A DNA stretch of 64,000 bases from a bacterium (GTDB lineage Bacteria; 4484-113; JAFGCY01), in assembly GCA_020440645.1 (NCBI GenBank), contig JAGRNR010000009.1, positions 5,092 through 69,091 on the forward strand, read 5' to 3'. The position numbers were made by a program, and so were the translations under genes. Below, piece after piece: positions 6,245-50,091 of the stretch. Below the pieces are notes generated by a model. The model was not told the DNA's origin, did no database searches, and saw only the letters and a list, made by a program, of their open reading frames with translations. Numbering within the stretch: position 1 is the stretch's first letter; the number at the start of each line of letters is the position of its first letter.

Positions 6245-6247
6245 GCC

Positions 6248-21825: not shown

Positions 21826-21851
21826 CGGGGAAGCCCCGCGAGGAGTGATAC

Positions 21852-22784: not shown

Positions 22785-22785
22785 G

Positions 22786-23097: not shown

Positions 23098-23165
23098 GAC
23101 ACAAGTTCGAAAACTGCAGGTTATAGATACTGTTGAGTTGAACCCCCGAAGAGAGGGATTTTTAT

Positions 23166-29755: not shown

Positions 29756-31918
29756 CTACTCGTACCTCCCGAGGAAGCTCTGAATGATGCGCCGCAGTGT
29801 CTCGTTGAGCGGGAAGGAGACGACAATGCACATCAGCACGGCACCCAACAGCAGCACGAACATGTAGTTCTGGATCTGCCCGTTCTGCCAGTAGCGGCCG
29901 TGCAGCCGCTTGATGATCCACCAGATCTCGCAGCACCACCAGCGGATGCCGTCGACGAAGTGCAGGTCAAGCCAGGCACTGGCATTGGCCAGCCCACGGC
30001 CGCCGCGCCCGATGCGCGTTGACAGCCAGTCGATCAGGCGGATGTCTGAAATGCCTGCAAGAATTGCGAGGAACTCGCCGAAGCCGCCCACCAGTCCCGT
30101 GAAGAAGGGCTTCAAGTACAGCCCCTCGCGGAAGAATCCGGTCACGCCTGTCAAGAGCGGGGTCGGGCTGGCCAGCCCGCGCTCCGAGGCGGAGACGAAT
30201 CCAAGCACTGCGCCGGCCAGCACCAGCACGACCGAGAGGCCGGCGGCCAGTGGTTCGAAGTTGCCTGCCCATTGCAGGTCGTGCAGCCGGCCCTCGAAAT
30301 AGGCGCGGTAGGATGGCCAGAAGGCGGCGATGCCGATGCTGCCGATGAGCGCCAGCAGGATGGAAATCACAGTCGGTCCGGCCCAGCCATTGCCTGCGGA
30401 CGCTTGCTCCGCCAGGCCATTGGCAGCCTCCTTGCCGGGGGAAGGCATCAGCCCGCTCAGCAGGCGCGCACAGTAGGCTGCGGTAAAGGGAATCGATGCG
30501 ATCAGCAGCAGCGCTCCGGCCTGCCAGTAACCCGGCATGGCGGGCATTGTGCTTGCCAGTGCGTTGCCACCGTAGTCCTGTCCGGCGCGGGACAGCAGCG
30601 CGGAGAGGATCTGGTCCTTGCCGAAGTAGCCCGCCAGCCCGATCACACCGGCCAGGCTCAGGCCGGCCGGCAGCAGGGCCAGCCAGAACAGCTGTCCGCT
30701 GGCGGGGGACTGCCTAAGGTCGTCAAAACTCGGTTCGTCGTCATTATGTGTTGCCTGGGCCTCATGCCAGCGCGCCACCACAATGCCGACCGCAAGGAAC
30801 AGCGCGGCCTTGAACCAGGCATGTGCCAGCAGCTGGAATCGCGCGGCCTCCATCGCCAGCGCCCCGCTGCCCATCACGCACAGCCCAAGCTGGCTGACCG
30901 TGCTCCAGGCCAGCAGCTTCTTCGGCTGCTGCTGGCAACAGGCCACGATCGAGCCCATGAGCATCGTCAGGCCGCCGAGCATCACCGCCCAGGCCAGCGG
31001 GGCCACGTACCAGCCGGGGTTGCCACTGTCCGCCTGCACCGGCACGACAGTTCGCCCGAACAGCAGGTCACTGGCCAACAGCGGCCCGGCCGCCACCAGA
31101 GTTGCACTGTGCAGCAGGGCACTGACCGGGGCCGGGGCCACCATCGCATCCGGCAGCCAGAATGACAGCGGCAGGAGTGCTGCCTTGCCGAGCACGGCCA
31201 GCAGGACTAATAGTCCGGCCACGATCATCCAGTTCACGGCGGACAGCTGGTCCGGTACATGCTGTGCCACCCAGCCGATGCTGACCTGGCTGAGCTGCAC
31301 CATGTGCACACCGAAGCGGCCGAAGCCGAACATGAAGATGAAGATCGCGAACAGCAGCCCGAAGTCCGTGGCGCGCGTCGTCCAGAAGGCCTGGCGCGCT
31401 GCCCGGTTGGCCTCCGGCGTGCCCTTGTGGCGGATCAGCAGGTAGCCGGCGAGGCCCATCATTTCCCAGGCGATGTACAGCAGGATCAAAGTGTCACTGA
31501 CGAGGAACAGCAGCATTGAGCCGCAGAAGAATGTCAGCAGCGCATGGAATTGCGCGGCCTTCGGGTCAGCGCGCCGCTCGCGGATTGCATACAGCAACAC
31601 CGCCACGCCGATCAGGCAGGTTGTCAGGATGAACAGCACCTGCGTGTAGTCCGCGCGCAGGGCCAGCGGGATCGGCGGGAAGGCGCGGATCTCCGTGGTG
31701 TAGCCGCTGATCCAGTTGACCATCCATACCGCGCGGCCGGTCTCGGCATCCAGTCCCGCATTGACGGCGAGCGCCATCCCGGCACTGGCCACAAGCGACA
31801 GCACGCCGAGCAGGGCCGTGACGACGGCCGGCACACGGCGCATGAGCAGGCCCGCCCCCGCCGCCAGCAGCGGCAGAAGCGCGATCAGCGGCAGCAGTCC
31901 CTGCATCTCAGGCACCAC
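29756..31918 (-). CDS. Complex I antiporter-like subunit, NuoL/ND5-like
   Basis: 720 aa. N-terminal NuoL signatures (…LFLVSDTLILLYIAWEMMGLAGYLLIRHKGTPEANRAARQAFWTTRATDFGLLFAIF…), a long polytopic body and a C-terminal region consistent with the NuoL lateral helix plus a final TM. Confidence 0.8.
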   Translation of the reverse strand: MVPEMQGLLPLIALLPLLAAGAGLLMRRVPAVVTALLGVLSLVASAGMALAVNAGLDAETGRAVWMVNWISGYTTEIRAFPPIPLALRADYTQVLFILTTCLIGVAVLLYAIRERRADPKAAQFHALLTFFCGSMLLFLVSDTLILLYIAWEMMGLAGYLLIRHKGTPEANRAARQAFWTTRATDFGLLFAIFIFMFGFGRFGVHMVQLSQVSIGWVAQHVPDQLSAVNWMIVAGLLVLLAVLGKAALLPLSFWLPDAMVAPAPVSALLHSATLVAAGPLLASDLLFGRTVVPVQADSGNPGWYVAPLAWAVMLGGLTMLMGSIVACCQQQPKKLLAWSTVSQLGLCVMGSGALAMEAARFQLLAHAWFKAALFLAVGIVVARWHEAQATHNDDEPSFDDLRQSPASGQLFWLALLPAGLSLAGVIGLAGYFGKDQILSALLSRAGQDYGGNALASTMPAMPGYWQAGALLLIASIPFTAAYCARLLSGLMPSPGKEAANGLAEQASAGNGWAGPTVISILLALIGSIGIAAFWPSYRAYFEGRLHDLQWAGNFEPLAAGLSVVLVLAGAVLGFVSASERGLASPTPLLTGVTGFFREGLYLKPFFTGLVGGFGEFLAILAGISDIRLIDWLSTRIGRGGRGLANASAWLDLHFVDGIRWWCCEIWWIIKRLHGRYWQNGQIQNYMFVLLLGAVLMCIVVSFPLNETLRRIIQSFLGRYE

Positions 31919-31953: not shown

Positions 31954-32439
31954 TCAATCCTTCATCAGGTTGGCATCATCAAGCATGATGCTCTTCTTCA
32001 TGCGGTAGAAGGCGATGATGATCGCCAGCCCGACCGCAGCCTCAGCCGCAGCAACGATGATCACGAATATCGAGAACACCTGGCCCATGTTCGTCATCAC
32101 GGATTCCTCCGCGGTGAACGAGGCCAGGGTGGATTTCGGTCCGTAGTAGAAGTTGAACGCGCTCATGTTGATGTTGACGGCGTTGAGCATCAGCTCCAGC
32201 GCCAGCAGCATCCCGATCGCATTGCGCCGCGCGATCACGCCGTACAGCCCGAGGCAGAAGATGAACGCGCTGAGCACGAAGTACTGGTGGTAGTCCACGT
32301 TGGTGAACCACACCATCGGCGTGTCGCCACTTGAGGCGAACCACTGGCGCGAGGCGAACTCGATCGCCTGGATGATCGGCGCCAGGCCCTCGCTCGCCAG
32401 CGAGCCACCCTCGGACTGTTGCAGCAGCAGCAGTAACAT
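31954..32439 (-). CDS. NuoK/ND4L-like subunit
   Basis: ORF 31954..32652. Homology to NuoK begins at the internal Met at 32316 (MVWFTNVDYHQYFVLSAFIFCLGLYGVIARRN… ~ E. coli [27 protein letters not shown]; …GQVFSIFVIIVAAAEAAVGLAII… ~ [23 protein letters not shown]). An in-frame Met at 32439 whose ATG overlaps the nuoJ-like TGA (ATGA) would add a 41-aa non-hydrophobic N-extension. The start is therefore either 32439 or 32316. Confidence 0.7.
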   Translation of the reverse strand: MLLLLLQQSEGGSLASEGLAPIIQAIEFASRQWFASSGDTPMVWFTNVDYHQYFVLSAFIFCLGLYGVIARRNAIGMLLALELMLNAVNINMSAFNFYYGPKSTLASFTAEESVMTNMGQVFSIFVIIVAAAEAAVGLAIIIAFYRMKKSIMLDDANLMKD

Positions 32440-33485
32440 CAGTCCTTCCTCACCAGGATGATCGCGCCGAGCATCGCCATGAGCAGGAGCACGCTGGCCA
32501 CTTCGAAGGGAAGTGTGTACGTTGCCATCAGCGACCAGCCGATGGCCTGGGTATTGCTTGTCAGTACTGCCGCACTGGGCGGGAACTCGGTGTTCTGCGG
32601 GAACTGCATGAACATCCCGACGAGCGCCATGAAGCCGAACAGCATCGTGCACAAAAGCGCGGCCCAGGGGCTCAGGTCAGTGTTCTGCCTGAGCTCGGTG
32701 CCGATGATGTTCTGGCTGACCATGATGCCGAACAGGAACAGCACCATGATGCCGCCGATGTAGATGATCACCTGCACCATCGCGAGGAACTCAGCGTTGA
32801 GCAGGATGAAGTAGCCGGCCACGCCGAACAGCGAAAGGATCAGCATCAGCGCGGAGTGGAACACGTTGCGCATCGTTACGCAACCGATGCCGCCGCCGAC
32901 CACGCCCGCCGTGAACAGCCAGAAGAAGAAGTTCAGCAGCCTGAGCGCGGGCACGCTGAGTGCCAGCATGCCCCAGAAGAAGGCGATGAAGCCAACGACT
33001 GTGAGGATTGCCAGCAGGCGCCGGTGGTCATGGAAGCGGTGCAGCGAAAGCTGCACGCAGGCGATCGTGCCGCCGACCAGCCCGAGGATCAGCATATTTG
33101 AAAGGTTGACAACCAGCGGCTGGAACAGCAGGGAGCTGATCACGAACACCGCCAGGCCAGCGCTGGCTGCCACCCGCAGCAGTCCGGCCTCCGCCGGCAG
33201 GCGGTTGAACAGCATCAGGTTCAGCAGGTAGAAGCCGGCGAGCATGCTGGCGCCCACCAGGATGCGTGCGTCCAGCTGCAAGGCCGCGGACCAGTCCAGT
33301 TTTCCACCCAGCGCTGCCAGCGGGGCGGCCAGCAGCGCCACAAGCACCGCGATCCCGGCCGTTGCCAGCAGCTGGCGGAAGATGCCGTCCAGCCGGTTGA
33401 CGAGCAGTCCGGCGGCCGCCAGCAACGCGGCCAGCAGGGCCACATTGCGCAGCAGCATAAGGGCGGCGGGCAGGCTGGTTTCCAT
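32439..33485 (-). CDS. NuoJ/ND6-like subunit with a ~165 aa N-terminal polytopic extension
   Basis: The C-terminal ~180 aa align with NuoJ (TMRNVFHSALMLILSLFGVAGYFILLNAEFLAMVQVIIYIGGIMVLFLF… ~ E. coli THTNPVHALLYLIISLLAISGVFFSLGAYFAGALEIIVYAGAIMVLFVF; C-terminal …YTLPFEVASVLLLMAMLGAIILV). Canonical NuoJ is about 170-200 aa; this protein is 348 aa with 4-5 extra N-terminal TM helices. Confidence 0.7.
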   Translation of the reverse strand: METSLPAALMLLRNVALLAALLAAAGLLVNRLDGIFRQLLATAGIAVLVALLAAPLAALGGKLDWSAALQLDARILVGASMLAGFYLLNLMLFNRLPAEAGLLRVAASAGLAVFVISSLLFQPLVVNLSNMLILGLVGGTIACVQLSLHRFHDHRRLLAILTVVGFIAFFWGMLALSVPALRLLNFFFWLFTAGVVGGGIGCVTMRNVFHSALMLILSLFGVAGYFILLNAEFLAMVQVIIYIGGIMVLFLFGIMVSQNIIGTELRQNTDLSPWAALLCTMLFGFMALVGMFMQFPQNTEFPPSAAVLTSNTQAIGWSLMATYTLPFEVASVLLLMAMLGAIILVRKD

Positions 33486-34480
33486 CAGGAACTCACCTCC
33501 CCGCGTGGCCGCCTGAGCGGCAGCACCAGCGCCTCGCGATTGGCAACCGGCATCGCCCAGCGCTCCTCGAACACGACGAGCGGGGTGCCGTCCGCGCGCT
33601 TCAGTTCGCCCAGCGCGGGATCATGGTCATAGCGTCCGAGGTCAACGAACAGCACCGTCGGCTGCCCGGGGGCCTGCGCGATTGCACCGCTGCCATCGGC
33701 GGCGATGATGCGCAGCGCTTCCTCCTCAGTCAGTGAGTCGACATTCAAGAGCGGCACGCCGCGGTAGGCCGCCGGCAGCTTCGGCCGGCTGCGCGGATAG
33801 TCCTCGGTGAAGGGCTCGCTCGAAGCCATCCGGGCGGTCTCGCGGAAGCCGGTCAGCACGGAGGTGCCGTAGCGGTGCACGCGGTTGCTGAAGAACCAGA
33901 ATTGGCTGAAGCCGGTTGCAAGGTAGCTCAGGTTGAGCACGAACACCAGGAACCAGAACAGCGCCCAGAGCATGAAGTAGCCGAGCTGGAACTTGAACAC
34001 GGGGAGGCTGCCGGTCTCGCGCCAGATGGCGAAGCCCTCGCCGCTGAGCAGAAGCGTCAGGTTCGGCGTGTCGGCAATGCCCTTCACGCTCATCTTCGGG
34101 TGGATGCGGTCCAGCGGGTCGAATTCCACGATGAAGAAGAACAGGATGATCACGAACAGCAGCAGACGCCAGAGCGTGAAGTCGCGCACCATCCAGCGGC
34201 TGTACTTCACAAGCGCGCCGGATGCCCACCAGAAGAAGCCGAGAATCGCCGGCAGGGCCAGCAGCAGGCCGCTAGCAGTGAACCACATCAGAGAGTACTG
34301 CTCGGAGGGCTGCTTGGAGGCATAGTCGTCAAACAGCGCGCCGTATTTCGTGTAGACGAACACCAACGTGAACCAGGACACGGCGATGAAGCCATAGAAC
34401 TTGAACCAGTCCATCGCGGTGTAGCCGAACCAGCGCTTCGGCAGCGGATGGTGGATTGTCAGGTCATGCCCGTCAGGCAT
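33485..34480 (-). CDS. Hypothetical polytopic membrane protein encoded inside the nuo-like operon (occupies the NuoI position)
   Basis: ORF 33485..34561. Start placed at MPDGHD… (ATG 34478-34480), which overlaps the TGA of the upstream gene (ATGCCTGA). Several TM helices (WFKFYGFIAVSWFTLVFVY; MWFTASGLLLALPAILGFFWWA; LWRLLLFVIILFFFIVEF; LGYFMLWALFWFLVFVLNLSYLA) plus a ~130 aa soluble C-terminal domain. No Cys-rich ferredoxin motifs (not NuoI). Its TGA overlaps the nuoJ-like ATG (33483-33487). Confidence 0.5.
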   Translation of the reverse strand: MPDGHDLTIHHPLPKRWFGYTAMDWFKFYGFIAVSWFTLVFVYTKYGALFDDYASKQPSEQYSLMWFTASGLLLALPAILGFFWWASGALVKYSRWMVRDFTLWRLLLFVIILFFFIVEFDPLDRIHPKMSVKGIADTPNLTLLLSGEGFAIWRETGSLPVFKFQLGYFMLWALFWFLVFVLNLSYLATGFSQFWFFSNRVHRYGTSVLTGFRETARMASSEPFTEDYPRSRPKLPAAYRGVPLLNVDSLTEEEALRIIAADGSGAIAQAPGQPTVLFVDLGRYDHDPALGELKRADGTPLVVFEERWAMPVANREALVLPLRRPRGEVSS

Positions 34481-34943
34481 GCTGCACCTCCTCCACCGTT
34501 TCCGGCTCGTTGGCAGCACTGCCGCCCGCTCCTGCTGCGGCGATGTTGCGCAGCTGGGCATGGTGCCCGGGCGCCGTCACCACGAACCAGTAGAGGAAGC
34601 CGGGCAGCAACAGCAGCACCGGCCGCAGTGTGAACTGCAGTTCGTACTGCAGCCACAGCGAATACAGGCAGCCGCAGGCCGCGAAGCTCCACAGCAGGGA
34701 AGCGATGCCGGGCCGCCGCCTGAACCAGGGGTTGATCCAGGCCGCATTGCGCGCCGGCGTCAGCGGCAGCACCGCCAGCAGCAGGCCGATTGCCAGCAGG
34801 GCCAGCGGGCCGAACCACTGCGTTGTCAGCACGGGTGCCACTCCAAGCACGATGCGCAGGTACAGGCCCCAGGCCCCGGCGGCCACGAGCAGCAGCTCTC
34901 CGAGGAGATGCAGCAGGTTCTGGCTGGTTGACAGCATCCTCAT
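34473..34943 (-). CDS. Hypothetical small membrane protein (4 TM) encoded inside the nuo-like operon
   Basis: ORF 34473..35042. Start placed at the internal Met MRMLSTSQNLLHLLGELLLVAAGAWGLYL… whose ATG (34941-34943) overlaps the TGA of the nuoH-like gene (34940-34942). About 156 aa. No family recognised. Confidence 0.5.
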   Translation of the reverse strand: MRMLSTSQNLLHLLGELLLVAAGAWGLYLRIVLGVAPVLTTQWFGPLALLAIGLLLAVLPLTPARNAAWINPWFRRRPGIASLLWSFAACGCLYSLWLQYELQFTLRPVLLLLPGFLYWFVVTAPGHHAQLRNIAAAGAGGSAANEPETVEEVQHA

Positions 34944-36715
34944 CCGGTCCAGCTCACCTCCCGGCGGGGCTGCGGATGTCGGCGCTGCACGAACAGGATG
35001 CGCCAGGCCATCAGGAGGATGAACAGGCCGAAGAACAGGCACAGCACGTTGTAGCCCCAGAAGAAGGCCTTCTCGGGGACTGTCATCACCGCCAGTGCTT
35101 CAGCTGTTGTCAGCGTCTGGTACTGGGTGACGCGCTGCAGGGCGGTCACGTCGACATCGGAGACGGCCAGCTGGTTCGCGCTGAACCAGGGATGGCGGTT
35201 GACGACGCCGAGCGCGGTGGCCGCCATCACGACCACGCTGGCCGGCAGCAGGAACTTCCAGGAGAAGAACATGATCTGGTCCACGCGGATGCGCGGCATC
35301 GTGGAGCGCGCCCATATGAAGAAGAAGCACACGGCGTAGGTCTTCAGCAGGAACCAGAACAGGCTCGTCAGCCACAATCCGTCGGGGCCGAGGAACATCG
35401 GGCCCTTCCAGCCGCCGAAGAAGCAGACGGTCATGATCGCGCTGACGATGAACACGTTGGAGTACTCGGCGACATAGAACAGCGCGAAGCGCATCCCGCT
35501 GTACTCCACCAGGTAGCCGCCCAAGAGCTCGTTCTGCGCTTCCGGCAGGTCAAAGGGCGGGCGGTTGGTCTCGGCAAGGCTGACAACGAGGTAGATGATG
35601 AAGGCCGGGAACAGCGGCAGGATGCCCCAGGTCATCGTCTGGCGCTGCACGATCTCCGTCAGGTTCAGCGAACCGGCAAAGATGGCAACGCACAGCAGGC
35701 TCATCAGCATCGGGATTTCGTAGGTCAGCAGCATCGCGGCCTCGCGCATCGCGCCGACCAGTGCATATTTGTTGTTGGAGGCGTAGCCGGACATGATCAC
35801 GGCCACGAGGAACATCGCAAAGTCGGCGATGATCAGGAGCAGGCCGACATTCAGGTCCTGGATCATGTAGTAGATGATCTGCCCGTCGACAGCCGCCACG
35901 CCGAACGGGATCACCACCCAGCTCAGGAGCGCCGGCAGGTAGACGAGGATCGGCGCGATCAGGTACAGCAGCTTGTCAGCGCTGAGCGGAACGGTGTCTT
36001 CCTTGAAGAAGATCTTGATCGTGTCGTAGAAGCCCTGGCGCCAGTAGTAGCGCAGCATGTAGCTCATGTAGAGCACGAAGGCGACCACGGTGCACAGCAC
36101 GGTGAGCTGCGGCAAAAACGGGATGTGCGCCTTCGGGATGAAGCCCAGCAGGAGAGCGACGAGCATGCCACCGCAGGACGCGAGGGATGGCCAGGCCAGC
36201 AGTGACAGCAGCGTTGCCAGGAAGCGCCAGACGGAGGTCTGCGCGGCCTGCATCCGGCCGAGCGCTGGCAGGATCATCAAGCGGTTGATCAGCCCCATCA
36301 TGCCCACGGCGAAGAACAGGATGATCCAGCCGCCGAACTGTTGCCAGCCGGCGGTGCCGCCGGTCCAGTAGTTGATGCCGTACAGCAGCGCGGGCAGGCC
36401 GATCAGCACGCCGATCTGCAGGAAGATCCGCCGGAAGCGCTGCGGGGTGACCTCGCCGTACTCCTGCGGGCCGCGGCGGCCCTGCATGCGCGCCATCAGG
36501 CGGCGTTCCCAGACCTGCAGGCCGATGGTGATCATCAGCTCCAGGAGGAAGATCAGCAGGAGCGCCGTCACCAACATGATGCCGTTGGCAACCTCCGGGC
36601 TGAAGCGCAGGCCGGGCAGCGGCTCGGTGTTGAGCCAGGCGCGCATCGCCTCCCAGACGGTGCGGGCCTCGTCCATGTCGTAGCGCTGCTGCAGGATTGC
36701 CAGCATCGGGAGCAT
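34940..36715 (-). CDS. NuoH/ND1-like subunit with a ~150 aa polytopic insertion and a ~80 aa C-terminal extension
   Basis: ORF 34940..36793. Start placed at MLPMLAILQQ… whose ATG overlaps the nuoD-like TGA at 36715. NuoH motifs are present (…VWERRLMARMQGRRGP…; …DTIKIFFKEDTVP…; …ASNNKYALVGAMREAAMLLTYEI…; …RPPFDLPEAQNELLGGYLVEYSGMRFALFYVAEY…; …RIRVDQIMFFSWKFLLP…). About 150 residues with about 4 TM lie between the RRGP and IKIFFKED motifs, where E. coli NuoH has about 15 residues. Confidence 0.75.
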   Translation of the reverse strand: MLPMLAILQQRYDMDEARTVWEAMRAWLNTEPLPGLRFSPEVANGIMLVTALLLIFLLELMITIGLQVWERRLMARMQGRRGPQEYGEVTPQRFRRIFLQIGVLIGLPALLYGINYWTGGTAGWQQFGGWIILFFAVGMMGLINRLMILPALGRMQAAQTSVWRFLATLLSLLAWPSLASCGGMLVALLLGFIPKAHIPFLPQLTVLCTVVAFVLYMSYMLRYYWRQGFYDTIKIFFKEDTVPLSADKLLYLIAPILVYLPALLSWVVIPFGVAAVDGQIIYYMIQDLNVGLLLIIADFAMFLVAVIMSGYASNNKYALVGAMREAAMLLTYEIPMLMSLLCVAIFAGSLNLTEIVQRQTMTWGILPLFPAFIIYLVVSLAETNRPPFDLPEAQNELLGGYLVEYSGMRFALFYVAEYSNVFIVSAIMTVCFFGGWKGPMFLGPDGLWLTSLFWFLLKTYAVCFFFIWARSTMPRIRVDQIMFFSWKFLLPASVVVMAATALGVVNRHPWFSANQLAVSDVDVTALQRVTQYQTLTTAEALAVMTVPEKAFFWGYNVLCLFFGLFILLMAWRILFVQRRHPQPRREVSWTG

Positions 36716-37869
36716 CACTTGTCGACCTCCCCGATCATGATGTCGAGGCTGCCGTAGATCACGAACAGGTCCGCCAGCAGGTAGCCGCGGCACAGCTCGT
36801 CCAGCAGGAACAGGTGGTACAGGCTCGGCGCACGCAGGTGCATGCGGCTCGGGCGGTTGCTGCCGTCGCTGACGAGTGTCAGGCCGAGCTCGCCGCGCGG
36901 GCTCTCGACCGCCGTGTAGACCTCGCCGCGTGAGACCTGCATCGCAGCGAAGTCTGGGCTGACATCCGCCGCCCGCAGCTCGCCGTTGTCAATGTAAGCC
37001 AGGCAGTGCTCAATGATGCGCAGGCTCTCGCGCATCTCGACGAAGCGCACGCGGTAGCGGTCCAGCACATCGCCATACTCGCCGGTCGGCACATGCAGCT
37101 CCAGCTCGCCGTACATCGCATAGGGCTGGTCGCGGCGCAGGTCATGCGCGATCCCGCTGCCGCGCAGCACGGGCCCGGTGGCACCGTGCTCGAAGGCGAA
37201 CTCGGGCTCGAGCGTGCCGATCAGCTCGCTGCGGTTGACCCAGATCGCGTTGTCAGAGAAGAAGTCCTCGTATTCATCCAGCCGGCCCTGGAACCACAGG
37301 CAGAATGCCCGCACATGGCCGCTGAAGTCCTCCGGCGGGGCAGTGCGCACGCCGCCGGGCACGATCCAGCCGTGGTGGTGGCGGTGCCCGCTGAGCATCT
37401 CCAGCAGGTCGAGCAGCATCTCGCGCTCGCGCAGCGAGATGAAGATCGGGGTGTAGGCGCCGGCCTCCAGGCCGAGGTTGCCAAACCAGAACAGGTGGTT
37501 GCCGATCCGGCTCAGCTCCAGCACAAGGGTGCGCAGCCACTGCGCACGGGCCGGAACCGTGATCCCCTCGATGCGCTCGATGGCGTCCGCCACCAGCCAG
37601 TCCGCATTGCTGCCGGCCAGCCACTCGCAGCGGGACAACAGCCCCGCCGCCTGGGCGTAGTTGCGCTGGGTCACCAGCTGCTCCACGCCGCGGTGCATGA
37701 AGCCGACCTCCGGCGTGATGCGCTCGATCAGCTCGCCGTCCGCCTGTACCCGCAGTTCCAGCGGGCTCGGCAGGCTCGGATGCTGCGGGCCGACGGAGTA
37801 GACCAGCTTCTCGGTCAGCAGCGGGTCGCGGCGGATCTCGACACGGCGATCAGAGCTGCGCGTCATCAA
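36715..37869 (-). CDS. NuoD (49 kDa)-like subunit lacking quinone-site His/Tyr and any NiFe-binding cysteines
   Basis: GPQHPSLPSPLELRV… (canonical GPQHP.AHGV), …GFMHRGVEQL…, …RIGNHLFWFGN…, and C-terminal …YGSLDIMIGEVDK (complex-I-type ending, no CxxC). 384 aa. Overlaps the nuoC stop by ~20 nt. Confidence 0.85.
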   Translation of the reverse strand: MMTRSSDRRVEIRRDPLLTEKLVYSVGPQHPSLPSPLELRVQADGELIERITPEVGFMHRGVEQLVTQRNYAQAAGLLSRCEWLAGSNADWLVADAIERIEGITVPARAQWLRTLVLELSRIGNHLFWFGNLGLEAGAYTPIFISLREREMLLDLLEMLSGHRHHHGWIVPGGVRTAPPEDFSGHVRAFCLWFQGRLDEYEDFFSDNAIWVNRSELIGTLEPEFAFEHGATGPVLRGSGIAHDLRRDQPYAMYGELELHVPTGEYGDVLDRYRVRFVEMRESLRIIEHCLAYIDNGELRAADVSPDFAAMQVSRGEVYTAVESPRGELGLTLVSDGSNRPSRMHLRAPSLYHLFLLDELCRGYLLADLFVIYGSLDIMIGEVDK

Positions 37870-38434
37870 GCACCTCCCGCATCGCCGCGTCCGCGCGCTG
37901 TTTCAGCACGTTTTCAGCGTAGTTCTCATGTGAGGCAGCCCTGAACTCCCGCCTGAGCGGGAAGCCCTGCAGCTGCGGGTCGAGGATCAGGCCAATGAGG
38001 TTAGGGTTGCCGGCGAAGGGGATGCCGAAGAACTCGAAGATCTCGCGCTCCATCAGCTCCGTGGCCCGCCAGATCAGGCTCAGGCTGGGGTGCACGCTCT
38101 GCCCGGCATAGGCCGGCGCGGCCTCGCTGTCCTCCCCGCCCGGATCCGTTGCCGGGGGATTGCCCTCCAGCAGGGTGAATTTCCATTTCAGTGTGAGGCT
38201 GACGTCATGCCGCCTGCCGTGCCTGAGCGTCAGGTAGAGGTGGAAGTCCGGCCCGCCGAGGTGGTTGGCGGTCATGTTCAGCGCACGGATGAAGCCGATG
38301 TTCTTCAGCTGGCGGCAGACCAGCGGCAGCTGGCCGCTGTCCGTCAGGATCGCCCAGCCGCGGGCGGGGTCCAGCAGCAGCACATCACCGCAGTCCTCAC
38401 GGATCTGACCGGCAAGCTCATCAGGGAGCACCAA
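37850..38434 (-). CDS. NuoC (30 kDa)-like subunit
   Basis: …ELMEREIFEFFGIPFAGNPNLIGLILDPQLQGFPLRREF… matches the NuoC signature (E.E..E.FGI.F.GHP.L.R.L…G.PLRKDF). 194 aa. First gene after an AT-rich intergenic region. Confidence 0.8.
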   Translation of the reverse strand: MVLPDELAGQIREDCGDVLLLDPARGWAILTDSGQLPLVCRQLKNIGFIRALNMTANHLGGPDFHLYLTLRHGRRHDVSLTLKWKFTLLEGNPPATDPGGEDSEAAPAYAGQSVHPSLSLIWRATELMEREIFEFFGIPFAGNPNLIGLILDPQLQGFPLRREFRAASHENYAENVLKQRADAAMREVLDDAQL

Positions 38435-38656
38435 GTCCTCCCCATCCTGGCTGGATTACGGCAATCGGCATACAGGTATAAACGATCAAAAGCCCCACAG
38501 CGTTACCTTATACATACAAAATGCAAAGGCTTTTGTAATTCTAGCCGATGGGGCAGCGCTGATCACCGCCTGCAGGCAATTGGTTGAAGGGCGTGTGGGT
38601 CTGCCAGCCCAATTGTTAACAGCGGGAAAATCAAAGTAAAGTCCCGATTCAATTAG
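38435..38656. promoter_or_regulatory. AT-rich divergent intergenic region (promoters for the nuoC-led operon and the sensor-kinase unit)
   Basis: Low-GC stretch (…gtataaacgatcaaaagcc…ttatacatacaaaatgcaaaggcttttgtaattctag…gggaaaatcaaagtaaagtcccgattcaattagttgattcattatcttgcgag…) between divergent gene starts. Confidence 0.45.
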
Positions 38657-39025
38657 TTGATTCATTATCTTGCGAGCCTGGATAATTTCTATAATTCAAA
38701 TCGTCAGACCCAGTCTGTACCGGTTGAATTCAAGATTCCAGGTCAAGGCATGCCACAGCAGCATGAATTAATTACTGCAATCCTCGGACTTGGCGTGTTG
38801 TTGCTGATGATCGTGCAACGCCGCCAGCTGCGGCTCATCCCTGACTACCGCTGGCTGTTCCTCTCCTACTGCCTGATCCTGCTGGCCTGGCTGCTGACCA
38901 TTGCGGAAGATTACTGGCTGCCGGTCTACATGAACCTGCTGGAGCATATCTGTTACCTGGCCAGCGCAGCGCTGGTCGCCTGGTGGACACAGAAGTTCCT
39001 CAGAAGGGAAGCGCCACAGCAATGA
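38657..39025 (+). CDS. Small membrane protein (2-3 TM), translationally coupled to the downstream sensor kinase
   Basis: 122 aa. TM segments (LITAILGLGVLLLMIV; WLFLSYCLILLAWLLTIA; ICYLASAALVAWW). Its TGA (39023-39025) overlaps the ATG (39022-39024) of the next gene (caATGAgc). Confidence 0.5.
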   Translation: MIHYLASLDNFYNSNRQTQSVPVEFKIPGQGMPQQHELITAILGLGVLLLMIVQRRQLRLIPDYRWLFLSYCLILLAWLLTIAEDYWLPVYMNLLEHICYLASAALVAWWTQKFLRREAPQQ

Positions 39026-40836
39026 GCATGCTGCTGACGGTGTTTGACCTGCTGAGCCTGCTGGCCGTGCTGTCTGCACTGTGGCTGGCGGCAGCCAGGC
39101 GGATTGCCGGCCTGCGGCGTGACTACCTGTGGTGCCTGATCATCCTGCTGGTGGTGCTGGGTCTCAACTTCCTCAGCAACCTGCTGGACAACAGCGGGCT
39201 GAGCCCCTGGCTGGAGCGCTTCGAGGACTACCCCGGACTGCTGCAGCCGGTGTTCTGGGGCATCCTCCTGATGAGCCTGGTGCAGGACCGCGCCCTGCGC
39301 CGCACCGAGCTCTCTGAACAGCGGCTGCGCGGCCTGCTGGACGCGATGCGTGACGGGGTTGCCACTATTGACCCGGGTGGCGTGTTCCGCTTTGCCAACC
39401 CGGCGGCCGCGGAAATCCTCGGGGTTGCCCACGGCAGCCTTAGCGGCCGCAGTCTGGACGAGTTCTGGCTGGCTACCGAATCGCATACTTGCCGGATGCT
39501 GCCACATTCCCCGGGCCAGGATTACAGCGCCTACGAATGCGGCATCCGCCATGGCAGCGGCGACAGCCTCGTGCTGCTGCTGCAGGTCTCGCCGATCCCG
39601 GGCCAGCCCCGCCAGCGCCTGCTGTTCATGCATGATGTGACCCCGCTGCGCCGGGCCGAGCACAGCCTGCAGCAGGCCCAGGCCCAGCTCGGACAGGCCC
39701 AGCGGCTGGAGGCGATCGGCACGCTGGCCAGCGGCATCGCCCATGACTTCAACAACATCCTGTTCGCGATTTCCGGCAACAGCCAGATCGCGCTGGATAC
39801 TGAGGGACTGACCGTCGATGCGCGGGAGAGCCTGCGCGAGATCGACACCGCCAGCCGCCGCGCCTCCGACCTGGTGGCGCAGATCCTCAACTTCAGCCGC
39901 AGCGAGAAGAGCCGGACACGGGACCTGTTGCCACTTCCGGTTGTCAAGGAAGTGCTGCGCCTGCTGCGCTCCACCGTGCCGCCGCAGGTCAGCATCCAGC
40001 TCAGCCATGACGAATCGACGTGCCGGATCCATGCCGACCCGACCGACCTGCACCAGCTGCTGATGAACCTCTGCACCAATGCGATCCAGGAGATGGCGGT
40101 GGAGGGCGGGACGCTGCGGGTCCGGTTGGAGTGCAGCAATCCACCGCCGACACTGGCCGAGCGGGGAATGCTGCAGCCTAAACCACACCTGATGCTCAAG
40201 GTCAGTGACACGGGGGGCGGTATTCCACCGGATGCGCTGCCGCACATCTTCGAGCCCTTCTTCACGACCAAGCCAAGCGGTGAGGGCACCGGTCTAGGGC
40301 TGTTCGTTGTCAGCGGGATCGTCAAGCGCCTGCAGGGACAGATCGAGATTGACAGCGAACCGGGCCATGGCAGCAGCTTCACGGTCTGGCTGCCGCTGTC
40401 CAGCGGGGCCGCTGATGCCGACGATGCCGGGCCGGGGCAGGCCACCGGCCGCGGCCGGGGCCGGCTGCTGGTGGTTGACGACGAGCCGGCGGTCAACCGG
40501 GTGCTGGCGCTGATGCTCGGCCAGCTCGGCTACAAGGTGACAACCTATAGCGACAGCTACCGCGCGCTCAGTGAGTTCCAGACCAACCCGGAGCAGTACG
40601 ACCTGCTGCTGTGCGACATCTCGATGCCGGGCCTGCGCGGCGATGAACTGGTGAAGCGGATACGCTCCGTTCGCCCAGGCCTGCCGGTGGTGCTGTGCTC
40701 CGGCAATCCGGATGTTCTGCCTCCGGGCAGTGCAACTGAACTGGGTGTGCATGCAGTGCTTAAGAAACCGGTTGACAAGCCACAGCTGGCGGATTGCATC
40801 GCCGAGGCACTTGGCAGTAACCGTGCACAGGCCTGA
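39022..40836 (+). CDS. Hybrid sensor histidine kinase (TM sensor, PAS, HisKA, HATPase_c, C-terminal receiver)
   Basis: ORF 38983..40836. Start placed at MSMLLTVFDLL… (ATGA coupling). Two or three TM helices, PAS-like region (LLDAMRDGVATIDPGGVFRFANPAAAEILG…), H-box (LEAIGTLASGIAHDFNNIL), N/G boxes (LMNLCTNAIQEM…; DTGGGIP…FEPFFTTKPSGEGTGLGL) and a receiver (RLLVVDDEPAVNRVLALMLGQLGYKV…DLLLCDISMPGLRG). Confidence 0.85.
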   Translation: MSMLLTVFDLLSLLAVLSALWLAAARRIAGLRRDYLWCLIILLVVLGLNFLSNLLDNSGLSPWLERFEDYPGLLQPVFWGILLMSLVQDRALRRTELSEQRLRGLLDAMRDGVATIDPGGVFRFANPAAAEILGVAHGSLSGRSLDEFWLATESHTCRMLPHSPGQDYSAYECGIRHGSGDSLVLLLQVSPIPGQPRQRLLFMHDVTPLRRAEHSLQQAQAQLGQAQRLEAIGTLASGIAHDFNNILFAISGNSQIALDTEGLTVDARESLREIDTASRRASDLVAQILNFSRSEKSRTRDLLPLPVVKEVLRLLRSTVPPQVSIQLSHDESTCRIHADPTDLHQLLMNLCTNAIQEMAVEGGTLRVRLECSNPPPTLAERGMLQPKPHLMLKVSDTGGGIPPDALPHIFEPFFTTKPSGEGTGLGLFVVSGIVKRLQGQIEIDSEPGHGSSFTVWLPLSSGAADADDAGPGQATGRGRGRLLVVDDEPAVNRVLALMLGQLGYKVTTYSDSYRALSEFQTNPEQYDLLLCDISMPGLRGDELVKRIRSVRPGLPVVLCSGNPDVLPPGSATELGVHAVLKKPVDKPQLADCIAEALGSNRAQA

Positions 40837-40884
40837 CGGGCGGGCGCGTCAGTGCTTTGTGATATACATGGGGAGGAGGCAGGC

Positions 40885-41250
40885 ATGGCGAAGAAGAAGT
40901 TCGAGGATGTGGACCCGCAGGTGCTGGCGGCCTACATGAAGATGATCGGGGGCGTTGAAGGGGTCGAGGCCAAGGGGGCCGCCGCGCCGTACACCTCCCT
41001 GAATGGCAATATGTACTCCAGTATCTCGAAGTTCAACGAGATCGGCCTGCGGCTGGCGAAGGATGAGCGCGAGGCCTTCCTCGAGAAGTACGACACCCGG
41101 CTCTACCACTCCATCCCCGGATATGTGCAGCGGGAGTATGTCACCGTGCCGCCTGCACTGTTTGGCAACACACGCACTCTGCGCAGCTGGTTCCGGAAGT
41201 CCTACGACTACGTCTCATCACTGCCGGCGAAGCCCACGAAGAAGAAGTAG
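40885..41250 (+). CDS. Small soluble protein, possibly TfoX N-terminal-domain-like
   Basis: ORF 40852..41250. Likely start MAKKKFEDV…. Pattern …MIGGVEGV…LNGNMYSSIS…IGLRL…EREAFLEKY…REYVTVPPALFGNTRTLRSWFRKSYDYVSSL is loosely reminiscent of TfoX_N. Low confidence in the family. Confidence 0.4.
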   Translation: MAKKKFEDVDPQVLAAYMKMIGGVEGVEAKGAAAPYTSLNGNMYSSISKFNEIGLRLAKDEREAFLEKYDTRLYHSIPGYVQREYVTVPPALFGNTRTLRSWFRKSYDYVSSLPAKPTKKK

Positions 41251-41741
41251 CGGGAAGGATTTCGGCGCTCGCTTGTCGGCAGTAGCGGGCGCGCTTGGCG
41301 ACGCCATGGAGTGATTGCCGCGAAGCAATGAGTGATGGTGTGTTGGTCTGCAGACCAACAGGGCCCTGTGGCTCTCAAGAGCCACACTCCGCCGCGTGCG
41401 CGCAGCCACGCGGAAAGCCCCTCTGCAATGAGCAATGCGGAGCAAGCAATGAGCCCGACGACACTCATTGCCAGACTCTGCGGCTCTGCGTTCACCAATA
41501 TCGCTCCACCCCAGCCGCATTGCCAACCAAGTGCAGGCTAGCCTCAGCCCAGTCAAACTGGAGAATTGTCAACACAGAGCCACCGAGCGCACAGAGTTTT
41601 CTGATCAGCTCCAGTCCCCGCATTTCCCTGACTTCGCTGCATCCCCTCCCAATCGCGGCTGGGCCGCGCCGGTTCTTCCGGTAACCCTGACCCTTGTTCT
41701 TCAGGTTGACTGATTCACTGGGAAATCCGAGACGAGCCAGT
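41251..41741. other. ~490 bp non-coding spacer rich in palindromes/hairpins and a repeated CAATGAG heptamer
   Basis: Perfect 20-bp palindrome TGTTGGTCTGCAGACCAACA (~41338-41357). Adjacent 8+2+8 palindrome GTGGCTCT-CA-AGAGCCAC. CAATGAG occurs 3 times (…gcgaagcaatgagtgatgg…, …tctgcaatgagcaatgcgg…, …gcaagcaatgagcccgacgacactcattgcc…), the last forming a hairpin with CTCATTG. No ORF of significant length with coding character. Confidence 0.5.
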
Positions 41742-42539
41742 CTATGAATACAGAAGATCCTCAAAATCCTCCGTCAGCTCTCCATGGAAAGTAGGGTAGT
41801 CAACCCTCCGGACATTGCGCCGCCATGGTCGCGGCCCCAGCTCGCTGCTTGTAAGCAGCTTGAGGTGAAGCGGATCGACATCTGTTGCCAGGCTGCATTC
41901 CGATCCGATGATCCCGTCTTTGTCCATGAAGTCCGTGTTTGGCCAGATATTGAAACTGCGACCGGATGACGTCCGGATCGAAGTCGGATTGAAGCCCATG
42001 GCAATCTCCATGGCATTGTAGCTTTCCCTGCGGATATCCAGCGGCAGGGCAAACCTTGACTGCTCAACATGCGCTGCATCCGACAATGCAGACTCTCCCT
42101 TTTGCCATTCGGGAAGGGGCATCGAGGCACTCAGGATGACAAAGGCCTTCTCTTGCCAGACGCCCGCATGATCCCTGACACAGCATGGGAACATCAGCCA
42201 CTTCATCCGCCGTTGAAACGCCGCGAATCCCACGCTGCCAATGTTCAGCAGCAGTTCCGCAAGCACTTTCGCCGGTTTCTCCATACCGGCATCCCAGGAC
42301 CTGGCCTTATCCAGGCAGCCTGCCGGAATTCTGAGCAGAAATCCCGATGCATGATCGAGATACCAGTCGGCATTGCATCTGGTGCAGATGTGCAGGATTC
42401 CGCGTTGCCAGCTTTCCCTGCGGATGATGAGCTTGTGCAGTTTGAAGTATGGGGTTTCCTCCCGGACACTTGCAGGAGGATCAGGATCCCAGGGGAGTGA
42501 TTCCCTGACCTGACAAGGGCAGCTGGCCTTGATACTCAT
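41742..42539 (-). CDS. Hypothetical Cys-rich protein (N-terminal CxC…CxxC zinc-ribbon-like motif), third gene of the nuoA-nuoB-like operon. Lower GC than surroundings.
   Basis: 265 aa. MSIKASCPCQV…ICTRCNADW…MFPCCVRDH…. GC visibly lower (about mid-50s %) than the flanking ~65% DNA. Starts 20 nt after the nuoB-like stop on the same strand. Confidence 0.5.
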   Translation of the reverse strand: MSIKASCPCQVRESLPWDPDPPASVREETPYFKLHKLIIRRESWQRGILHICTRCNADWYLDHASGFLLRIPAGCLDKARSWDAGMEKPAKVLAELLLNIGSVGFAAFQRRMKWLMFPCCVRDHAGVWQEKAFVILSASMPLPEWQKGESALSDAAHVEQSRFALPLDIRRESYNAMEIAMGFNPTSIRTSSGRSFNIWPNTDFMDKDGIIGSECSLATDVDPLHLKLLTSSELGPRPWRRNVRRVDYPTFHGELTEDFEDLLYS

Positions 42540-42558
42540 GGTTCATGGTAATGCGATC

Positions 42559-43011
42559 CTACCGCCACGCAAACCGCTCATCCAGCGCACCCGAGAGGAT
42601 GCGCTCCCGGAGCGCGATGATGCCGTCGATCAGCTGCTCGGGCCGCGGCGGGTCGCCCGGCACATAGATGTCCACTGGTACGATGCGGTCCACTCCCCCG
42701 TCCACCGCATAGCTGCCGTCGAAGGGCGCGCCGCTGATCGCCCCCGCGCCAAACGCCATCACGAAGGCCGGGTCGGCCATCGAGGCATGCAGCCGGCGGA
42801 TCACCGGGGCCATCTTGTTGTTGACGACGCCGGCCACGATCAAAAGGTCCACCTGGCGCGGGCTGGGGCGCATCACCTCAGAGCCGAAGCGCGCGATGTC
42901 ATAGCGCGGCGAGATCGCGCTGAACAGTTCCAGCGTGGCGTAGTCCAGTCCGAGCATCAGCGGCCACAGGGAATGGGCACTGGCCTCGCGGATGAGGTCC
43001 TTCAGACCCAT
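42559..43011 (-). CDS. NuoB (PSST/20 kDa)-like subunit in which all four cysteine ligands of Fe-S cluster N2 are replaced
   Basis: …HSLWPLMLGLDYATLELFSA… (canonical …WP..FGL[A/S]CC..EMM…); …VDLLIVAGVVNNKMAPVIRRL…; …VMAFGAGAISGAPFDGSY… (canonical MG.CA.[S/N]GG…); …IVPVDIYVPGDPPRPEQL… (canonical PGCPP). Overall NuoB fold signatures are intact (ARFG.E..R.SPRQ.D; KMAP; PVD.Y.PG.PPRPE). 150 aa. Overlaps nuoA by 10 nt. Confidence 0.8.
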   Translation of the reverse strand: MGLKDLIREASAHSLWPLMLGLDYATLELFSAISPRYDIARFGSEVMRPSPRQVDLLIVAGVVNNKMAPVIRRLHASMADPAFVMAFGAGAISGAPFDGSYAVDGGVDRIVPVDIYVPGDPPRPEQLIDGIIALRERILSGALDERFAWR

Positions 43012-43400
43012 TCCAGCGCTCCCTTGCGGTAGGCATAGGCCCAGCCGACGAGCAGGATGCCGAGGAACACGAACATCTCGCCCAGTGAGGCGGCCCCGAT
43101 CGGCGTGAAGGTGATGTCGTCATTGCCGAACACCAGCAGCCGGAAAGCGGTGGCCCAGGGGAAGATGAACATGATGTCCACGTCGAACATGAGGAACACG
43201 ATCGCGAGGATGTAGAAGCGGATGTTGAAGCGCACCAGCGCATCGCCGGTGGCCTGCGCGCCGGATTCATAGCTCAGGCGCTTGAGGAAGTTCGGCCGCC
43301 GCGGACGCCACAGGTTCAGGAAAGCGAATGCCAGCCCGATCAGCACCGCCCCGCCCAGCAGGAAGAGTGCCACCCAGTTGTACTGTCCAACGGTGTTCAT
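43002..43400 (-). CDS. NuoA/ND3-like subunit
   Basis: …LSYESGAQATGDALVRFNIRFYILAIVFLMFDVDIMFIFPWAT…YRKGALEWV matches NuoA (YECG…F.[IV]RFY…A..F..FDVE..F..PWA; C-terminal KGALEW). 132 aa, 3 TM. Confidence 0.8.
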   Translation of the reverse strand: MNTVGQYNWVALFLLGGAVLIGLAFAFLNLWRPRRPNFLKRLSYESGAQATGDALVRFNIRFYILAIVFLMFDVDIMFIFPWATAFRLLVFGNDDITFTPIGAASLGEMFVFLGILLVGWAYAYRKGALEWV

Positions 43401-45553: not shown

Positions 45554-45675
45554 CTTTATTCCTCACTGCGCCCGGATACTCTCCAGCAAGCTGGAGGGGC
45601 AGCACAGAATTCTAACTGAAAGAATCACCAAACTGAGCTTCGCGGCAAGCAGGTCCCAGCTACCCCTGGCACGGT

Positions 45676-47790: not shown

Positions 47791-47903
47791 CTTTATTCCT
47801 TGAACCTGCCTGGTTCCTTATGGCAGTGCAGGAGGCTGGGAAAATTCTACTCGATCAGTCTCAATCATTGACTTTCCCAGTAAAGCAATCCGCCAGCGAT
47901 CAT

Positions 47904-49997: not shown

Positions 49998-50091
49998 GCG
50001 CTTGTCCTCGCACTTTACCGGGTTCCGTCCGCACAGATTCTAACCCAGGACAAACCAGGACAAGCAGTTGCATCGCAGTCCGGCCTGCAGC

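Follow-up and report, generated by a model that had tools for sequence, protein, structure and literature searches.

A central open question about respiratory complex I is how quinone chemistry drives proton pumps located up to 200 Å away. Among the described systems, the 11-subunit complex I/NDH-1 (Nuo11), which lacks NuoEFG and is found in cyanobacteria, chloroplasts, Chlorobi, Desulfitobacterium, and Bacteroides, is the closest in sequence and gene order to the operon reported here. This operon resides in a stretch of 64,000 nucleotides of a bacterial genome (positions 5,092 to 69,091 of contig JAGRNR010000009.1 in assembly GCA_020440645.1; hereafter the window) and includes a gene for a homolog of NuoD, the 49-kDa subunit of complex I. 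The genes of the operon in the window belong to the same families as those of Nuo11 and are arranged alike, as A, B, C, D, H, I, J, K, L, and M. The Mrp (Mnh/Pha) antiporter, the closest known system in terms of inferred function, conducts no redox chemistry and comprises the antiporter-like subunits MrpA and MrpD together with NuoK- and NuoJ-like elements (PMC9568556). The Ehr complexes, which are the closest in possessing a large subunit free of metal ligands, are described as related to hydrogenases and, together with a partner oxidoreductase, presumed to be driven by redox reactions (PMC6349859; PMC4758237). The membrane-bound hydrogenase (MBH), the sulfane reductase (MBS), and formate hydrogenlyase (FHL) likewise combine a module resembling NuoB/C/D/I/H with antiporter-like subunits, but they harbor three iron-sulfur (Fe-S) clusters plus a catalytic site and are much less similar to the proteins studied here at the sequence level.

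Compared with Nuo11, the operon in the window lacks the ligands of clusters N2, N6a, and N6b, the His and Tyr that bind quinone, and NuoN, while its NuoI is fused to a membrane domain, its NuoH bears an insertion of four transmembrane (TM) helices, and an extra subunit (termed X1 in this study) is encoded. On the other hand, the NuoD, NuoB, NuoH, and NuoM in the window all score best against genuine complex I subunits, NuoD has the C-terminus and the fold of the complex I type, and the residues of the antiporter-like subunits and the "E-channel" are intact. Judged from the sequences, the operon descends from an 11-subunit-type complex I, and the redox-cofactor and substrate sites in the peripheral arm, namely the Cys ligands of N2, N6a, and N6b and the quinone-binding His/Tyr, have all been replaced. 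A respiratory enzyme scaffold thus seems to have been recruited to a function that requires no electron transfer.

The nuoD-like gene spans positions 36715-37869 on the minus strand, a point overlooked in the initial annotation, and encodes 384 aa when counted from TTG. We prefer the ATG at 37866 as the probable true start (383 aa), because the homologs P0001-P0005 and the gene calls in two related loci (L088 and L089) start there. The protein matched the Pfam family PF00346 (Complex1_49kDa) with a score of 270.1 bits (cutoff 24) and an E-value of 2.1e-80. In a search of PDB with phmmer (HMMER), the top matches were the 49-kDa/NDUFS2/NuoD subunits of complex I (2.6e-84), including Nqo4 of Thermus thermophilus (1.1e-77), whereas the hydrogenase-type homologs were matched much more weakly (4e-44 for MbhL of MBH and 5e-32 for HycE of FHL); in terms of bit scores, the values were 287 against NDUFS2 and 154 against MbhL. 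The AlphaFold2 model computed from 87 sequences had a mean predicted local distance difference test (pLDDT) score of 90.4, and residues 29-34 in the loop between strands beta1 and beta2 were the sole stretch of very low confidence (pLDDT <50). Foldseek superposed this model on the NDUFS2/NuoD chains of complex I with TM-scores of 0.88-0.91 and E-values of approximately 1e-33. The sequence carries GPQHPSLPSPLEL at residues 27-39, GFMHRGVEQL at 56-65, and SRCEWLA at 79-85, and terminates in MIGEVDK. The two Cys pairs of hydrogenase large subunits (RxCGxC near the N-terminus and DPCxxC near the C-terminus) are both absent, the corresponding segments being SRCEWLAG and DIMIGEVDK, and the latter is a C-terminus of the complex I type. 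The gene is flanked directly upstream by nuoC and directly downstream by nuoH, with overlapping codons on both sides. Thus, the protein is, as far as sequence and model can tell, a true member of the NuoD/49-kDa family, and the initial annotation, which had described it as NuoD-like, of the complex I type, and devoid of the NiFe-binding Cys residues, is borne out by the Pfam match, the PDB search, and the structural comparison.

In Nqo4, His38 and Tyr87 hydrogen-bond the quinone headgroup at a distance of approximately 12 Å from cluster N2. The initial annotation had proposed that both are missing from the protein in the window and that Trp occupies the position of the latter, and we could confirm this by gap-free alignments and by reading the codons directly from the DNA. 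The HMMER alignments to complex I subunits placed GPQHPSLPSPLEL over GPQHPAAHGVLRL and LSRCEWLA over FDRLDYVS with no gap. Likewise, BLASTP aligned the protein with Nqo4 of T. thermophilus from residue 17 to approximately residue 300 with no gap and a constant offset of +4 (263 bits, in agreement with the 264.9 bits for 2fug_4 in the database search). Consequently, Pro34 (codon CCG, 37768-37770, minus strand) corresponds to His38 of Nqo4 (bovine His59), and Trp83 (codon TGG, 37621-37623, minus strand) corresponds to Tyr87 of Nqo4 (bovine Tyr108). By the same correspondence, Glu82, Arg80, Glu135, and His165 match Asp86, Arg84, Asp139, and His169 of Nqo4, respectively. Pro34 lies in a remodeled beta1-beta2 loop, which reads SLPSP as opposed to the canonical STHGV, and Trp83 lies in SRCEW as opposed to DRxDY. 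A third altered segment is the His-rich stretch H162-R-H-H-H166 (37372-37386, minus strand), for which the consensus among the close homologs described below is SGHRxHHGW as opposed to the canonical SGxRMHxxxIR; His169 of Nqo4, the counterpart of His165, is the residue beside cluster N2 in the published structures. Val170 occupies a canonical Arg site (R174 of Nqo4).

A search of 5.8 billion proteins showed that the NuoD in the window belongs to a clade of approximately 42 sequence clusters sharing 55-95% identity, and the next matches showed at most 46% identity. The 39 clade members that cover the region all contain GPQHPS[L/F/M]x[A/S]P and R[C/T][E/D]W; position 34 is occupied by a residue other than His (P/V/A/T/I/S/C) in 39/39, and position 83 is Trp in 39/39. 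The canonical NuoD sequences retrieved by the same search possess His and Tyr at the two columns in 75 out of 75 cases. The pattern is therefore a fixed trait of the clade, and chance or sequencing error can be dismissed as its origin. S79 and P36 are invariant among the 39 clade members, while E82 and L33 are conserved in 38 of them. When the positions conserved in at least 85% of the canonical NuoD sequences yet replaced in the clade were tabulated (in the numbering of the NuoD in the window), we found T33L, H34x, G35A, V36P, K64x, E67x, D79S, D82E, Y83W, D135E, Y144W, R170V, and D177E. In light of the published structures, we take most of these positions to lie in the beta1-beta2 loop, the segment containing Tyr87, the Asp139 that pairs with His38, and the residues adjacent to N2.

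The clade is rare and compact: among 1.84 billion representatives clustered at 50% identity, it collapsed into a single full-length representative with 682 bits, and the score dropped to 368 bits for the next match. The GTDB scan detected two species representatives of this clade (L001 and L002). In NCBI, the clade members are labeled "bacterium", and the closed genome CP060262.1 is labeled "Planctomycetales bacterium"; marker genes are absent from the window. The loss of His and/or Tyr is not unique in the superfamily, as approximately one third of the top 150 representatives of NuoD-like clusters lack one or both, and a few of that third carry the hydrogenase Cys motifs. The unusual point, judging from the sequences, is that an otherwise bona fide set of complex-I-type proteins has lost all of its cofactor sites. 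In a neighbor-joining tree of 145 representatives, the clade grouped with other divergent sequences; this grouping looks like a product of long-branch attraction, so we did not use the tree. Separately, an orphan NuoD paralog (P0173; L084:10001-11281), in which the His is replaced by Gln and the Tyr by Phe, has no nuo gene nearby; rpsF-rpsR-rplI is located just downstream of it and two GAF histidine kinases are encoded upstream.

The nuoB-like gene (42559-43011, minus strand; 150 aa; PF01058, 1.8e-19) encodes the subunit that would hold cluster N2. The phmmer alignment with Nqo6 (2fug_6) had no gap near the ligands and paired FGLACCAIE with LGLDYATLE, GACASSG with GAGAISG, and PGCPP with PGDPP. 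Thus, the four Cys ligands of N2, namely C45, C46, C111, and C140, are replaced by Y24 (42940-42942), A25 (42937-42939), G90 (42742-42744), and D120 (42652-42654), respectively, and A44 of Nqo6, adjacent to C45, is replaced by Asp (D23). Of the 49 NuoB sequences of the clade, 48 lack Cys at the C45, C111, and C140 columns and 6 keep Cys at the C46 column. All four N2 ligands were present in 72/72 canonical NuoB matches. The earlier description of this NuoB as N2-less therefore stands and extends to 48 of the 49 clade members. The remaining member, a NuoB sequence of 154 aa on an ENA contig of 503 bp (P0361), retains the Cys pair in GLACCAIEMM and has the Gly and Asp typical of the clade at the other two ligand positions; it is either an intermediate in evolution or a chimera that arose in assembly.

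In the slot of nuoI, a gene (33485-34480, minus strand) encodes a protein of 331 aa, termed X2 or I* in this study, which is identical (100%) to MCB1186391.1 (KDL29_04410), a "hypothetical protein". X2 consists of an N-terminal membrane domain with approximately four predicted TM helices and a Cys-free, NuoI-derived C-terminal domain starting at approximately residue 200. The search against Pfam assigned X2 to no family. We identified 47 homologs of X2, all of which are annotated as hypothetical or unnamed and several of which share contigs with NuoD sequences of the clade. When the X2 family alignment was compared with that of 40 canonical NuoI sequences by hhalign, the two matched with a probability of 85% and an E-value of 6e-6, YPxxxPxLPxxFRG being placed on QYPxEKxxxxxRFRG and AIIAADxSGAI on CxxCxxCxxxCPxxAI. 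A NuoI hidden Markov model (HMM) scored up to 23.4 bits on the X2 family (median 13.6; 12.9 for the X2 in the window), while none of 940 shuffled controls exceeded 2.4 bits. Furthermore, BLASTP matched X2 with a Cys-bearing homolog in a more distant locus (L083; see below) at 5e-7. MbhN of MBH and HycF of FHL, both of which correspond to NuoI, were the top two PDB matches of the AlphaFold2 model of X2 (pLDDT 77) in Foldseek, with E-values of 0.25 and 0.82 that are too weak for the structural match alone to identify X2 as NuoI; it is the profile-based tests that establish the homology. At the level of sequence, we thus regard X2 as a homolog of NuoI. The X2 family alignment contains no conserved Cys, and none of the eight ferredoxin-type ligands is present in X2. 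We also considered a heme- or Fe-S-related role for X1 or X2 and rejected it, as neither has a conserved Cys and the one near-invariant His of X2 is in a loop. As both NuoB and the NuoI-like protein are retained and have lost their ligands, all 12 Fe-S ligands of the Q-module (N2, N6a, and N6b) are gone.

The operon is encoded on the minus strand and starts with nuoA-B, which are separated by 4.1 kb of unrelated DNA from nuoC-D-H-X1-I*-J-K-L-M. The genes from nuoC to nuoK overlap with one another by 1-20 nt (TGATG, ATGA, or longer), nuoL starts approximately 35 nt past nuoK with a Shine-Dalgarno sequence, and nuoM begins directly after the stop codon of nuoL. The same gene order was found in L081 (a contig of 2.7 Mb), L082, L001, L002, and CP060262.1 (L088; positions 1,461,444-1,482,439), and in L089 up to the end of the contig within nuoL. 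Neither nuoE/F/G nor nuoN was detected in the neighborhood of the operon in the window, at the six clade loci (in L089, up to the contig end), or in L083, and no conserved neighbor capable of donating electrons was found in these seven related loci. The 11 open reading frames (ORFs) are intact in six relatives, of which NuoD sequences share 58-95% identity with that in the window, and additionally in L089 up to the contig end. We calculated the ratios of nonsynonymous to synonymous substitution rates (dN/dS) against L001, a relative with 90% identity (dS 0.24-0.63). The values were 0.06 for nuoA, 0.15 for nuoB, 0.26 for nuoC, 0.15 for nuoD, 0.25 for nuoH, 0.47 for X1, 0.34 for I*, 0.32 for nuoJ, 0.20 for nuoK, 0.39 for nuoL, and 0.22 for nuoM. 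All of the 11 genes are therefore under purifying selection (dN/dS 0.06-0.47). Together with the ORFs being intact down to 58% identity in NuoD, these ratios rule out a recent pseudogene. The initial annotation had suggested, from NuoD and NuoB, a peripheral arm shaped like the Q-module but inert in redox terms. This suggestion gains support from the NuoI homolog lacking the eight ferredoxin Cys residues in the nuoI slot, from the absence of nuoE/F/G or a conserved redox partner linked to the operon in any relative examined, and from the conservation of this state under purifying selection.

A related operon on a contig of 14 kb (L083; ENA ERZ23495063 scaffold_5619, with NuoD P0171) provides a comparison from outside the clade. 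Its genes are arranged in the order A-B-C-D-H-I-J-K-L-M, the NuoI being a TM-fused version of 354 aa, and NuoN is again absent. The four N2 positions of NuoB are occupied by E/D/G/S, while NuoD has Trp at the His position and Ile at the Tyr position and lacks the His patch. Neither X1 nor the insertion of four TM helices in NuoH is present in this locus. Its NuoI-like protein (5719-6783) scored 48 bits with the NuoI HMM and keeps four Cys residues (…EACP… and …CYFCGLC…), corresponding to the CP of motif 1 and the CxxCxxC of motif 2. According to the ligand-swap rule of 2x[4Fe-4S] ferredoxins, these four constitute the full ligand set for one 4Fe-4S cluster. L083 thus looks, from its sequences, like an intermediate stage of cofactor loss. 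If L083 is taken as the sister lineage of the clade, NuoI would have been fused to TM helices and NuoN lost before the cofactors disappeared completely. The cofactor losses in L083 and in the clade represented by the window may be either shared or parallel.

As opposed to the peripheral arm, the membrane arm retains the residues expected for a pump. NuoA (43002-43400, minus strand; 132 aa; PF00507, 1e-27), of which the gene overlaps the start of nuoB by 10 nt, keeps YESG and FDVD (canonical YECG and FDxE), and both motifs are conserved in five loci. NuoH (34940-36715, minus strand; 591 aa; PF00146, 3e-97; the start ATG and the stop of nuoD overlap in TGATG) contains PFDLPEAQNE (canonical PEAExE), EYSG, and AEYSN, the forms seen in the clade being PFDLPEA(Q/S)NE, EYSG, and AEYxN; the middle Glu of the PEAExE loop, replaced by Gln or Ser, is the only loss in NuoH at the five clade loci. 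The PDB alignment of NuoH was split into residues 73-114 and 253-528 by an insertion of approximately 135 aa with four predicted TM helices (around nt 36044-36451) between TM1 and the TM1-2 loop, and hydropathy suggests one extra TM helix at the C-terminus. On the basis of the published structures, we take the insertion site after TM1 to be near the quinone entry. NuoJ (32439-33485, minus strand; 348 aa; PF00499 at residues 199-344) keeps the TM3 motif IIYIGG and has an N-terminal extension of approximately 190 aa with several extra predicted TM helices. NuoK (31954-32436, minus strand; 160 aa; PF00420) keeps both membrane-embedded Glu residues (LELMLNA and AAAEAAVG). NuoL (29756-31918, minus strand; 720 aa; PF00361) retains the TM5 Glu, TM7 Lys, TM8 His, and TM12 Lys in WEMMG, GKAALLPLSFWLPDAM, LLHSATLVAAG, and HAWFKAALF, respectively, and NuoM (28055-29755, minus strand; 566 aa; PF00361), encoded by the last gene of the operon, retains the TM5 Glu, TM7 Lys, TM8 Lys, and TM12 Glu. 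The canonical proton-pathway residues of NuoA, NuoJ, NuoK, NuoL, and NuoM are all kept in the five clade loci. In PDB, NuoM matched NuoM at 3e-73, NuoN at 7e-24, and Mrp subunits at approximately 1e-21 to 1e-28. As the second antiporter-like subunit in the operon is of the M type, the missing one is NuoN.

X1 (34473-34943, minus strand; 156 aa; four predicted TM helices), of which the start overlaps the nuoH stop as ATGA, was assigned to no known family in our search. It is poorly conserved, sharing 62% identity with the counterpart in L001, and a similar-sized gene occupies the X1 position in L081. Taken together, the NuoH insertion, X1, the membrane domain of NuoI*, and the NuoJ extension amount to approximately 15-17 extra predicted TM helices. 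The nuoC-like gene (37850-38434, minus strand) encodes 194 aa and matched PF00329 at 1e-15 over residues 112-168, that is, the match is confined to the C-terminal half.

We lean, if narrowly, toward the operon encoding an ion translocator that descends from complex I and works independently of redox chemistry. Such a complex would neither carry electrons nor reduce quinone and would likely work as a secondary cation/proton antiporter, analogous to Mrp with its two antiporter-like subunits, or as another device that uses or dissipates an ion gradient. Ions would pass through the half-channels of NuoL and NuoM and the E-channel formed by NuoH, NuoA, NuoJ, and NuoK. The former Q-module, comprising NuoB, NuoC, NuoD, and I*, would cap NuoH in a structural and/or gating role, and we propose that it has been kept because NuoH/A/J/K depend on a cap to assemble or to be gated. 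The vacated quinone and N2 pockets would be filled by Trp83, the proline-rich beta1-beta2 loop, and the polar cluster of Asp, Tyr, and His, while the extra TM helices may sterically stand in for NuoN or constitute a new ion path. Mrp offers the best functional analogy for a complex-I-type membrane arm free of cofactors, and MrpA and MrpD were among the weaker matches of NuoM. Nevertheless, Mrp possesses no homolog of NuoB, NuoC, NuoD, NuoI, NuoH, or NuoA, the NuoL and NuoM in the window are clearly of the Nuo type, and the operon encodes none of the MrpB, MrpE, MrpF, and MrpG families. As for Ehr, secondary sources describe a membrane complex of undefined function with antiporter-like subunits (an Mrp-like module) and a large subunit that lacks the NiFe-binding Cys residues and has no known substrate, all of which recall the complex in the window; by comparison with the same descriptions, however, the NuoD in the window is of the complex I type by score, the membrane subunits are of the Nuo type, and the whole arm is devoid of Fe-S ligands.

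Several points weigh against reading the complex as a redox-independent ion translocator. The translocation, its direction, and the ion species are deduced from conserved residues only, and a redox-driven pump would conserve these residues equally. The conservation of W83, E82, S79, P36, L33, and the His patch in the former active site could signify a new function of the pocket, and it is possible that Asp, Tyr, and His, being able to ligate metals, form a non-Cys metal site. Finally, the homology of the ferredoxin core of X2 to NuoI is supported by moderate scores, and the confident alignment is limited to the N-terminal segment of NuoI.

The main rival explanation starts from the same conserved residues and regards the remodeled quinone/N2 pocket as a new, non-redox active or ligand site at the interface of NuoB, NuoD, and NuoH, to which the ion flow through NuoL and NuoM is coupled as a driver or a gated output. 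Ion transport would then be the means rather than the end, the end being to bind, extract, or chemically act on a ligand that is hydrophobic or small, as might be conceived by analogy to the cyanobacterial NDH-1MS, in which the scaffold is coupled to CO2 hydration. The near-invariance of the five NuoD residues above and the consensus SGHRxHHGW agree with this idea, and the D23/Y24/G90/D120 pattern in NuoB is equally fixed. Besides, three soluble subunits and a NuoI domain maintained by purifying selection would be costly for a mere lid, and the coupling loops touching the cavity, in NuoA and NuoH, are likewise conserved. What speaks against a new site is that the residue at the His38 position varies in the clade and that the replacements in L083 differ from those in the clade, so that no single new site is conserved across both lineages. 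Moreover, no substrate-handling gene is consistently linked to the operon at the related loci, and the four-TM insertion in NuoH may close the cavity. On balance, we regard this explanation as unlikely. A broader formulation, in which the complex is a complex I free of cofactors, the quinone/N2 chamber being a non-redox ligand or metal site coupled conformationally to the antiporter-like subunits so as to yield an ion-gradient-driven or ion-gating machine of an as yet undescribed kind, fares a little better in our judgment and may be entertained as a tentative possibility.

We give even less weight to each of three further explanations, namely residual redox activity, a mixed assembly, and a dead relic. 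The complex might still be a redox enzyme that binds a metal or a cluster through Asp, Tyr, and His or receives electrons directly from an unlinked partner, with quinone or another acceptor bound in a different manner. Those residues can indeed ligate Fe or Fe-S centers, and D23, Y24, and D120 of NuoB and H162, H165, and H166 of NuoD would surround the former N2 site if the geometry of the published structures is applied; the complete four-Cys set for one ferredoxin-type cluster in L083 also fits. Nevertheless, apart from the Cys at the C46 column in the 6 NuoB sequences, the clade has retained none of the 12 Cys ligands, the His/Tyr pair that binds and protonates quinone is gone with the His position being unconserved, the seven related loci encode no electron-input subunit, and the pocket in L083 is devoid of the His patch. 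We therefore rate residual redox activity low, and we rate lower still the possibility that the operon supplies alternative subunits that join NuoN, NuoE/F/G, and others of a canonical complex I encoded elsewhere, yielding an inactive or regulatory isoform. NuoN is indeed missing from the cluster, and many bacteria are known to possess two nuo operons that share nuoEFG (Spero et al., 2015; PMC4453560). On the other hand, the cluster is already equipped with A, B, C, D, H, I*, J, K, L, and M and would need to borrow only N, electrons from the N-module could not cross the Cys-free NuoI and NuoB, and the additional TM helices around NuoH and NuoJ point to a membrane arm that has been re-engineered and is self-contained. 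That the operon is the decaying, non-functional relic of a complex I might be suspected from the loss of every known catalytic feature and from the interruption of the operon by unrelated genes in the lineage of the window and by a toxin-antitoxin pair in L082. We consider this very improbable, as the idea is largely refuted by the selection data: the ORFs are intact across relatives with the low dN/dS ratios, the replacement residues are invariant rather than random, the pump residues are conserved, and the translational coupling is preserved.

A full-text literature search retrieved no description of a complex I free of the Cys ligands or the quinone site. The databases that name the clade proteins call them "NADH-quinone oxidoreductase subunit D/B", so metabolic reconstructions would wrongly credit their uncultured hosts with a respiratory complex I. 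In this clade, the electron-transfer cofactors and the quinone ligands have been removed, while the scaffold of the Q-module, the coupling loops, and the pump residues have been retained under selection. If the complex is functional and the membrane arm is a secondary transporter under a dead Q-module, it would represent a transition from complex I to an antiporter, opposite in direction to the usual evolutionary account; the other option for a functional complex is a cavity with a new ligand-coupled role. The canonical complex I, L083 with one possible cluster left, and the clade with none may be arranged in a series of stepwise decay. If the reading as a ligand or metal site is true, the complex would be a ready-made system in which conformational coupling is separated from redox chemistry in complex I.

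Between nuoB and nuoC, the operon is interrupted by DNA (38435-42558) that contains a hybrid PAS-HisKA-HATPase-REC sensor kinase (38983-40836, plus strand), a TfoX_N-like ORF (40852-41250, plus strand), and an ORF of 265 aa with no match in Pfam (41742-42539, minus strand). The cargo of this region varies: CP060262.1 has the 265-aa and TfoX-like ORFs without the kinase, and the content in L001 differs. In the more distant relatives L081, L082, and L002, the operon is contiguous. A stretch of approximately 120 nt just upstream of nuoC (around 38437-38552, minus strand) is 81% identical to that in L001, while the rest of the intervening DNA differs; this stretch, AT-rich by the standard of this genome, may be an internal promoter or a leader. 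The Rfam scan of the window gave no matches. In L082, a nucleotidyltransferase/HepT-like toxin-antitoxin pair (L082:13956-14569) lies inside the operon, with nuoH on one side and the NuoI-like gene on the other.

Upstream of nuoA, four large ORFs are arranged in tandem (43454-52914, minus strand). The three that were scanned (43454-45553, 47904-49997, and 50092-52914) encode PKD-domain proteins of 697-940 aa, two of which also have a PPC domain, and the first PKD ORF upstream of nuoA starts with a lipoprotein-like signal sequence. The next gene past nuoM is plsY on the opposite strand. Two ankyrin-repeat proteins are encoded in the window (1628-4021, minus strand, 797 aa; 57978-60308, plus strand, 776 aa), and the operon in L082 is likewise flanked by an ankyrin gene. 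A motA-motB-fliL-like cluster (21025-24071, plus strand) is followed by genes for an NHL-repeat beta-propeller protein and a PP2C phosphatase close to the end of the operon, and the same neighbors are found in CP060262.1. From the motA-motB-fliL-like cluster, the host is probably flagellated.

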